Origin: Bacillota bacterium
GTDB taxonomy: Bacteria > Macinerneyibacteriota > Macinerneyibacteria > Macinerneyibacteriales > DSCS01
Direction of reading: 5' to 3'
Assembly (NCBI GenBank): GCA_011048995.1
Contig: DSCS01000026.1
Coordinates: 2,765 to 66,764 of the forward strand
DNA length: 64,000 bases
Positions 58,716 through 59,498 of this stretch are shown here, piece after piece. Positions within the stretch are counted from its first letter, which is position 1; each line of letters begins with the position of its first letter. Under the pieces are notes generated by a model. The model saw nothing but the letters and a program-made list of their open reading frames with translations, was not told the DNA's origin and searched no databases. Position numbers and translations under genes: made by a program.

Positions 58716-59189
58716 ATGAACTGGATCGAGATCATCACCATGCTGAGTGCCGGGATCGCCATGGGTTTAGGGGCGATCGGATCCGGAATCGGAGAAGGTT
58801 ATGCGGCCGGAAAAGCAGTGGAAGCCGCCTCCCGCCAGCCCGGAGTATCCGACAAGATCATGAAGACGATGCTTATCGGGCAGGCCGTAGCTGAGTCCAC
58901 CGGGATCTATTCTTTGGTCGTGGCCCTGCTTCTTCTCTTTGCTGCGCCCAAGGATGTCGGGTTGGTCAAGGCCATGGCTTTGCTGGGAGCCGGTTTTGCC
59001 ATGGGGTTCGGCGCTATCGGCCCCGGATTAGGCGAAGGGTATGCTGCCGGTAAAGGCGTCGAAGGTATAGGAAGAAGCCCCCATGAAGAGGGGAATGTGT
59101 TCCGTGTCATGTTGATCGGCCAGGCGGTTTCGGAATCCACTGGGATCTATTCCCTGGTTGTCGCCTTGCTTTTAATATTTGTCGTATAA
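58716..59189 (+). CDS. atpE: F0 c subunit, fused tandem double-hairpin form (two complete c-subunit repeats, each with an ion-binding carboxylate)
   Basis: 157 aa. Two repeats of G.GEGYAAGK...MLIGQAV(A/S)[14 protein letters not shown]. Confidence 0.85.
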
Positions 59190-59213
59190 TAACAGGTGAA
59201 AGGAGATACTCAT

Positions 59214-59498
59214 ATGGCTCAATTAGAAACTCTTGTTCAGGAAGCCGTGATCACAGGGAGAGAAATCGTGCAGGCGGCGGCCATGTTAGGAGCCGGCATT
59301 GCCATGGGCTGCGGCGCCATCGGCCCCGGTATCGGAGAAGGATATGCTGCGGGGAAAGCCTGCGAAGGGGTATCCAAACGCCCTGAAGAGAACGGGCTTA
59401 TTACCCGGACCATGCTTGTGGGACAGGCTGTCTCAGAGTCGACCGGGATCTACTCTTTGGTGGTGGCCTTACTTTTGATCTTTGTTGTCGGCAAATAA
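59214..59498 (+). CDS. atpE: F0 c subunit, single hairpin
   Basis: 94 aa. [11 protein letters not shown]...[34 protein letters not shown]. Confidence 0.88.

Follow-up and report, generated by a model that had tools for sequence, protein, structure and literature searches.

The window analysed in this study is a stretch of 64,000 nucleotides of contig DSCS01000026.1 (positions 2,765 to 66,764 of the forward strand; GenBank assembly GCA_011048995.1), deposited under Bacillota bacterium and belonging to Candidatus Mcinerneyibacteriota (NCBI spelling, Macinerneyibacteriota). Toward its end the window carries a canonical F1Fo ATP synthase operon with two F-type genes for the rotor subunit c, one encoding a fused double c subunit with four predicted transmembrane (TM) helices (atpE1, hereafter cc) and the next one encoding a single-hairpin c (atpE2, hereafter single c). 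Both genes are intact, conserved and under strong purifying selection, and by alignment all three hairpins carry the complete two-carboxylate Na+ ligand set of the Fusobacterium nucleatum type. These two separately translated genes encode the rotor ring, which is probably heteromeric and Na+-coupled with one Na+ per hairpin, the fused subunit being best read as a fusion that precedes degeneration of any ion-binding site.

Na+ ligands in the fused and the single c subunit

A first-pass annotation, made from the sequence alone, had described the first c gene as two complete c subunits fused in tandem and followed by a single c, and its coordinates proved exact to the base after analysis of the open reading frames (ORFs) and of the PF00137 matches (Table 1). 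The cc gene starts with ATG at 58716 and stops with TAA at 59187-59189, a second TAA following directly, and a short linker, roughly AAPKDVG, joins hairpin 1 to hairpin 2. The single c gene starts with ATG at 59214 and its stop codon lies at 59496-59498. Both products exceeded the PF00137 gathering cut-off of 24 bits, with 129.1 bits over two stretches for cc and 68.3 bits for single c, and the hallmarks of F-type subunit c, i.e., the helix-2 carboxylates (E60, E140 and E75) and the polar loops (RQP, RSP and KRP), were present in the three hairpins. The AlphaFold2 (AF2) model of cc contained helices at residues 3-39, 45-76, 82-120 and 122-156; its confidence was low (predicted local distance difference test, pLDDT, of 56 from a 5-sequence alignment), so that only the four-helix secondary structure of this model is usable.

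After ranking of PDB sequences for cc by phmmer, subunit c1 of Acetobacterium woodii (4bem_J) came first (E 5.6e-42), followed by F. nucleatum c (3zk1), A. woodii c2 and Ilyobacter tartaricus c (1yce). The three hairpins of the window were aligned with PDB sequences 3zk1, 1yce and 4bem using HMMER and MAFFT, with an ungapped stretch from the helix-1 GxGxGEG segment to the helix-2 motif. The helix-1 carboxylates E27 (hairpin 1), E107 (hairpin 2) and E42 (single c) fall in the column of F. nucleatum E32, the position that is occupied by Gln in A. woodii and, as the annotation had correctly stated, in I. tartaricus. The QAV(A/S)ESTGIY motif of all three hairpins corresponds to Q61 to Y70 of F. 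nucleatum, with E60, E140 and E75 in the E65 column. All three hairpins share V63, E65, S66, T67 and Y70 with F. nucleatum; at residue 64, hairpin 1 has Ala, and both hairpin 2 and single c have Ser. In F. nucleatum the direct Na+ ligands are E32, the V63 carbonyl, E65 and S66, T67 and A64 bind a water molecule, and Y70 and S66 form hydrogen bonds with E65; the site spans two neighbouring hairpins, one providing E32 and E65 and the next one S66 and the V63 carbonyl, and the Na+-driven function of this enzyme was shown by experiment (PMC3692424). The pattern pointed out in the annotation, Glu in helix 1 with Glu-Ser-Thr and Tyr in helix 2 of every hairpin, is therefore upheld by gap-free columns, and alignment against F. 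nucleatum, A. woodii and I. tartaricus places these Glu, Ser, Thr and Tyr residues inside the ion-binding positions.

By analogy with A. woodii c1 and c2/3, cc and single c would co-assemble in one heteromeric ring, with each Na+ site built across the interface of two neighbouring hairpins. Because every hairpin has every ligand, any order of cc and single c would give a full site at every interface, including the intramolecular interface between hairpins 1 and 2, and the ring would hold one Na+ per hairpin; the fusion itself would thus leave the number of ions per hairpin unchanged and would not lower the Na+/ATP ratio. The unusual c-ring stoichiometry proposed in the annotation does not follow, since all hairpins carry all ligands and both the ring size and the cc:c ratio are unreadable from sequence. 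The helix-1 glycine motif (GxGxGxGxG) sets the ring size (PMC7594442), and in comparison with c11 rings the motif of the window has a one-residue insertion plus Ala at the G25-equivalent, so that the ring size need not be 11. The intact cc may play a role in ring nucleation, in setting the parity or size of the ring, or in providing a distinct docking loop for gamma and epsilon (RSP versus RQP or KRP).

The closest known arrangement is the hybrid ring of A. woodii and Clostridium aceticum (PDB 4BEM), in which, as in the window, an F1Fo operon encodes a fused two-hairpin c followed by a single c with Na+-type ligands. The A. woodii ring is composed of 9 c2/3 to 1 c1, giving 10 sites on 11 hairpins (PMC9171764), and C. 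aceticum has c1 and c2 together with Na+-dependent ATPase activity (PMC7911925). A. woodii c1 differs from the cc of the window in that its hairpin-2 carboxylate is lost (Q..AQT) and its motif is of the one-carboxylate Q..ET type, while both hairpins of cc read E..E, as the annotation had claimed in stating that both sites of the fusion are kept. Thus, from the features of an A. woodii-type F/V-hybrid, the window shows a four-TM fused c plus a two-TM c within one operon, but without carboxylate loss in the fused subunit. The F. nucleatum c11 ring (PDB 3ZK1) shares the ligand set and the matching surrounding sequence, but is a homomeric ring from one c gene. Fusion without loss of Na+ ligands is also found in the archaeal A-type duplicated c of Methanothermobacter thermautotrophicus and Methanobrevibacter smithii and in the 13-hairpin c of Methanopyrus kandleri, the duplicated subunits keeping all sites (PMC2359735), but these belong to A/V-type enzymes with homomeric rings and stem from a separate fusion event. 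Tandem-fused c subunits engineered in Bacillus PS3 FoF1 by Mitome et al. likewise have linked hairpins with all carboxylates intact and are active (PMC8809890), indicating that active hairpins can be joined covalently in a working enzyme; unlike cc, however, the PS3 construct is artificial and H+-coupled, with GSAG linkers and the whole ring fused.

Conservation of the two genes and probable decay of hairpin 2

With the cc alignment as query, a scan of one genome per species of GTDB gave metagenome-assembled genomes (MAGs) of Candidatus Mcinerneyibacteriota as the closest matches, with cc identities of 92% for locus L005 and 71% for locus L007 of Candidatus Mcinerneyibacterium aminivorans, and the exact cc protein was present on several long contigs from independent assemblies. 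In related loci cc and single c were always found together, and the occurrence of the same two genes in at least seven such loci indicates homology, not chance. In seven related loci a stop codon ends cc and the conserved GAAAGGAGA precedes the start of single c, with a spacer of varying length. The layout a-cc-c-b-delta-alpha-gamma-beta-epsilon was observed in L001-L007, L022, L035 and L057. Codon comparison gave dN of 0.05-0.14 and dS above 1 or saturated; wherever dS was unsaturated, dN/dS was 0.04-0.07, alike for hairpin 1, hairpin 2 and single c, indicating strong constraint on both halves of the fusion.

Pairwise identity was 58% between hairpins 1 and 2, 64-65% between hairpin 1 and single c, and 71-72% between hairpin 2 and single c. 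The remark in the first-pass annotation that hairpin 2 is nearer to single c than hairpin 1 is was numerically true, but the fusion of adjacent duplicates that it had suggested was not borne out, as single c is 85% identical to a single c of Planctomycetota and a clade exclusive to hairpin 2 and single c was recovered in 0/200 bootstraps. A recent local duplication giving rise to hairpin 2 and single c was therefore rejected, since single c resembles its counterparts in other phyla more closely, and the duplication and fusion are old.

For comparison of the ligands, a hairpin hidden Markov model was built, all c-type ORFs of 57 loci were split into hairpins, and the ligand columns were tabulated. 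Hairpin 2 reads E..SESTGIY in the window, L005, L035 and L003, I..SESTGIY in L057 (protein P0056, same operon), and I..SGSTSIY in L006 and L007, where both carboxylates are gone. In a neighbour-joining (NJ) tree with 200 bootstraps, the hairpin-2 sequences formed one clade (158/200) and the hairpin-1 sequences another (146/200), placing the fusion before both the split of these lineages and the loss of sites. The series is best read as a stepwise decay of hairpin 2 in sister lineages, from E..E to I..E to I..G, with the undegenerated state held by the window. The Glu of helix 1 would be the first to go from hairpin 2, followed by that of helix 2, and the decay would end in a 'V-type' c resembling that of A. 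woodii, in which four helices share one site. Ca. M. aminivorans (L007; VSIX01000003) is of the same phylum as the window and has the same operon order with orthologous cc (71%) and c (87%), but differs from it in having lost one site in hairpin 2, as in A. woodii, and in reading ESGGIY in hairpin 1. As a separate observation, hairpin 1 of cc in L006 (6115..6603) and L007 (7977..8465) reads QAISESGGIY, in which the equivalent of T67, the Thr of the site water, is replaced by Gly, beside the hairpin-2 site loss.

The two hairpins of A. woodii c1 and its c2 formed a clade of their own, apart from the hairpins of the window, in 177/200 bootstraps (182/200 after addition of F. nucleatum and I. tartaricus). 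By this tree the A. woodii fusion is independent of the Mcinerneyibacteriota fusion, and cc does not share a common fusion origin with A. woodii c1. As for a common origin of the cc of Mcinerneyibacteriota and that of Desulfobacterales (L008-L011), the two grouped together in one NJ tree, but in no more than 1-2/200 bootstraps.

Ion coupling, ring composition and operon context

Coupling of the enzyme to Na+ is predicted from the ligand set, and the leading alternative, which we regard as unlikely, is an enzyme that works physiologically with H+, or promiscuously with H+ and Na+, in spite of its Na+-type motif. Two-carboxylate rings do exist in H+-coupled enzymes and Methanosarcina acetivorans uses both ions (PMC3692424), while the selectivity depends on subtle site polarity that is not fully predictable from sequence. 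The H+-coupled two-carboxylate examples, however, are without the Ser/Thr ligands, whereas all three hairpins of the window agree exactly with F. nucleatum, an experimentally Na+-driven system, in the Glu of helix 1 and in the Val, Glu, Ser, Thr and Tyr of helix 2; at the variable residue 64 (Ala/Ser) only the backbone carbonyl is involved. A further point against H+ coupling is the Na+-pump signature of a membrane pyrophosphatase (PPase) encoded upstream (52772..54940, + strand), about 2.4 kb from the first atp gene and not part of the operon. This PPase has Ala in the K+-dependence signature, as in the K+-dependent family, and the gate Glu in its DLYES motif aligns four residues (one helix turn) before E301 of the Vigna H+-PPase; the Ala signature and the gate-Glu position separate Na+-pumping from K+-dependent H+-pumping PPases (PMC9408878). 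The predicted Na+-type PPase adds context for a Na+ economy, and the neighbourhood of PPase, YibE/F, M23 peptidase, bactofilin and atp genes is common to the relatives L003, L005, L014 and L022.

Slightly less probable than H+ coupling is the formation of separate homomeric rings, made of cc alone or of c alone depending on conditions, so that isoenzymes would differ in ring size. Each of the two genes has its own Shine-Dalgarno (SD) sequence, which would permit separate regulation of their translation; a ring made of cc alone could be built geometrically whenever the number of hairpins is even, and fully fused rings work in the engineered PS3 enzyme (PMC8809890). Nevertheless, cc and single c are adjacent, co-oriented and 24 nt apart, they always occur together, and the sole studied precedent, A. 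woodii, makes a mixed ring of constant stoichiometry. In a scan of 56800..60100 for promoter- and terminator-like sequences the counts stayed near the shuffled expectation, with no internal signal above background between cc, c and b.

That cc and single c are one three-hairpin fused gene split by a stop codon, or joined by readthrough, was rejected as highly improbable: the two genes do share a frame in the window (59214-58716 is divisible by 3) and many database homologues of 230-250 aa (about 240) have three hairpins, but the spacer length differs among relatives and L005, L006 and L007 are out of frame, so that the shared frame is a coincidence, and, in addition, an SD sequence is conserved before single c in all related loci, two consecutive stops end cc in the window, and single c clusters with its counterparts in other phyla rather than with the final hairpin of the 3- to 5-hairpin fusions.

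Several points weigh against the proposal of a Na+-coupled heteromeric ring with a pre-degeneration fusion. Co-assembly of cc and single c in one ring is assumed by analogy, and the predicted model of cc has the low pLDDT given above. Two-carboxylate sites can be more H+-selective in some enzymes, as discussed for M. acetivorans (PMC3692424), and for this reason the motif alone is no proof of the physiological ion. The polarity of the E-to-I-to-G series depends on an NJ tree from a short alignment (73-79% bootstrap) and on parsimony, and the host, an anaerobe, is uncultured and known from MAGs only.

The operon has the gene order atpZ-I-a-cc-c-b-delta-alpha-gamma-beta-epsilon, of which the end of beta and epsilon were taken from identical metagenomic contigs (on L001, epsilon is the gene 11833-12246), since they lie beyond the window end. 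The start of subunit a (232 aa) is the choice of the gene caller on the identical contigs, the frame being open from 57971, and the L001 gene for subunit a (5295-5993) was transferred to the window by an offset of 52715. An N-type ATPase operon was rejected: such operons are without delta and have beta and epsilon first (PMC4154653), whereas here delta/OSCP (PF00213) is present, beta and epsilon are downstream of gamma, and neither atpR nor atpQ is found. Identity as an A/V-type proteolipid (NtpK, subunit c/K) was likewise rejected, as the genes stand in an F-type operon and the match to Enterococcus hirae NtpK (E 5e-8) is far weaker than those to F-type c (1e-21 to 1e-42).

Table 1. Features of the atp operon in the window (positions counted from the first nucleotide of the window)
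Feature	Position	Strand	Evidence and remarks
atpZ-like small membrane protein (ATPase_gene1)	57344..57592	+	PF09527, E 1.3e-13; opens the atp operon
atpI (assembly factor)	57637..58017	+	PF03899, E 2e-5, barely past the cut-off; called as a gene on identical contigs
Fo subunit a	58010..58708	+	PF00119, E 1.1e-57; conserved stator Arg present
SD sequence of cc gene, AGGAGG	58706..58711	+	read from the sequence; 4 nt before ATG
atpE1, fused double c subunit (cc), 157 aa	58716..59189	+	two PF00137 stretches, E 7e-38; four predicted TM helices
cc hairpin 1 (aa 1-79)	58716..58952	+	GSGIGE27GY ... QAVAE60STGIY65, loop SRQPG; aligned to F. nucleatum 3zk1 residues 15-83
cc hairpin 2 (aa 80-157)	58953..59186	+	GPGLGE107GY ... 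QAVSE140STGIY145, loop GRSPH; aligned to A. woodii c2 (4bem_A) and c1
SD sequence of single c gene, GAAAGGAGA	59198..59206	+	junction comparison; kept in all Mcinerneyibacteriota loci
atpE2, single-hairpin c, 94 aa	59214..59498	+	PF00137, E 6.8e-19; GPGIGE42GY ... QAVSE75STGIY80, loop SKRPE
Fo subunit b (one gene)	59514..60002	+	PF00430, E 1.2e-25
F1 subunit delta (OSCP)	59992..60540	+	PF00213, E 3.3e-41
F1 subunit alpha	60537..62150	+	ORF; Pfam families on identical contig L001
F1 subunit gamma	62160..63002	+	ORF; PF00231 on identical contig
F1 subunit beta	63018..64000	+	truncated by the window end; L001 gene 10303-11811 mapped by offset

Apart from the rotor genes, the window carries two tandem four-gene cassettes on the + strand (8014..11520, encoding 208, 332, 238 and 381 aa, and 11687..15170, encoding 207, 331, 235 and 394 aa), in which genes 1-3 gave no Pfam match and gene 4 is DUF6754 (E about 1e-110). 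The window also encodes a TrkH/TrkA pair for K+ uptake at 15251..17640 (+) and, at 27461..32518 (+), a 1685-aa protein in which TPR repeats and a GGDEF domain accompany a weak match to a kinase.

Fused c subunits in other lineages

The comparison of the 57 loci showed that a fused multi-hairpin c beside a single c is common in anaerobic lineages. The arrangement, given as the number of hairpins in each gene, is 2+1 in Mcinerneyibacteriota and a Thermotogae MAG, 1+2 (order reversed) in the Deltaproteobacteria/Desulfobacterales MAGs L008, L009 and L011, 3+1 in Planctomycetota, Brocadiaceae and Cloacimonadota, 4+1 in many Desulfobacterales, the Coatesbacteria MAG L012 and the unclassified MAGs L020 and L021, and 5+1 in L018; members of Thermodesulfobacteriota are also included in the set. 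In all of these loci the single c has the E..ESTGIY ligands, with A or T at residue 64 in three loci and QVIS in L034. Carboxylates are missing from several hairpins of the 3- to 5-hairpin fusions, where Q, G, T or S stands instead; examples among L008-L043 are the genes at L012 3663..4982, L018 7248..8756, L024 7839..9013 and L028 7233..8564. Full F1Fo operons surround the fused c in Mcinerneyibacteriota, Cloacimonadota, Planctomycetota, L018, L020/L021 and L037, and many Desulfobacterales clusters are Fo-only (a-c×4-c-b). The Desulfobacterales/Deltaproteobacteria MAGs L019, L027, L028, L030, L032, L036 and L038 show a-c×4-c(-b) with no F1 genes within the fetched flank. Such Fo-only clusters with c×4 recall the 'ectopic duplicated Fo' described in Desulfococcus oleovorans (PMC4154653).

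When 1.84 billion cluster representatives were searched exhaustively with HMMER, 89 clusters were obtained at E ≤ 1e-30, nearly all of them multi-hairpin. Among the two-hairpin representatives inspected, P0162 alone keeps the full E..ESTGIY in both hairpins, and the genome loci with the full motif in both hairpins, besides those of Mcinerneyibacteriota, are L008, L009 and L010. Judged by these motifs, the both-sites-intact state of the window is rare among fusions, though not unique. The library of representatives also included giant c-type proteins with about five or more tandem hairpins, P0141 (968 aa), P0172 (1139 aa), P0213 (784 aa), P0229 (631 aa), P0165 (524 aa) and P0129 (435 aa), of which P0129, with five hairpins, seems related to A. 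woodii-type c (Q..ET / Q..QT). In a Gammaproteobacteria MAG (L049 5942..6428) two single-hairpin c genes lie side by side, one with the normal E..MAVTESTGIY and the other carboxylate-free (S..MAVTGTTGVY).

In a broader proposal, to which we attach a little less than even confidence, the window would belong, as its undegenerated member, to a large radiation of bacterial Fo/F1Fo gene clusters that is apparently undescribed and is characterized by a 2-5-hairpin fused c plus an invariant single c; its lineages would adjust how many Na+ sites a ring has, and with this the Na+/ATP ratio, by fusing hairpins and then deleting carboxylates singly. The window would then be a living intermediate, with fusion and without loss, on the route from an F-type to a V-type-like rotor, a route deduced until now from A. 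woodii and archaea only. Our search of the literature found no description of an F-type fused c keeping both sites or of a 3- to 5-hairpin F-type c, although earlier mention in reviews on hybrid rotors is possible. A 2024 preprint, in which about 1,500 c-subunit clusters were modelled, dismissed models with fewer than 8 protomers as unreasonable and left fused or multi-hairpin c unmentioned.

On the basis of its sequence, the locus is predicted to encode a hybrid Na+-coupled F-type rotor at the stage of 'fusion without site loss'. The ion/ATP ratio is set by how many ion sites the c-ring has, and this ratio decides whether ATP synthesis is possible at a very low driving force. The accepted origin of the V-type rotor is duplication, then fusion, then site loss; for F-type enzymes, to our knowledge, this account rests on one lineage, A. 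woodii and its relatives, which is already at the stage of loss. The locus and its relatives would supply the missing earlier stage together with a series within one phylum, E/E, I/E and I/G. This series opens experiments on the role of the fused subunit before loss (assembly, ring size or stalk docking), on whether site loss lowers the threshold of ATP synthesis, and on how heteromeric rings fix their stoichiometry. Many biogeochemically important anaerobes, namely sulfate reducers, relatives of anammox bacteria and Cloacimonadota, may have rotors with non-canonical numbers of sites, and bioenergetic models based on MAGs would be affected accordingly.

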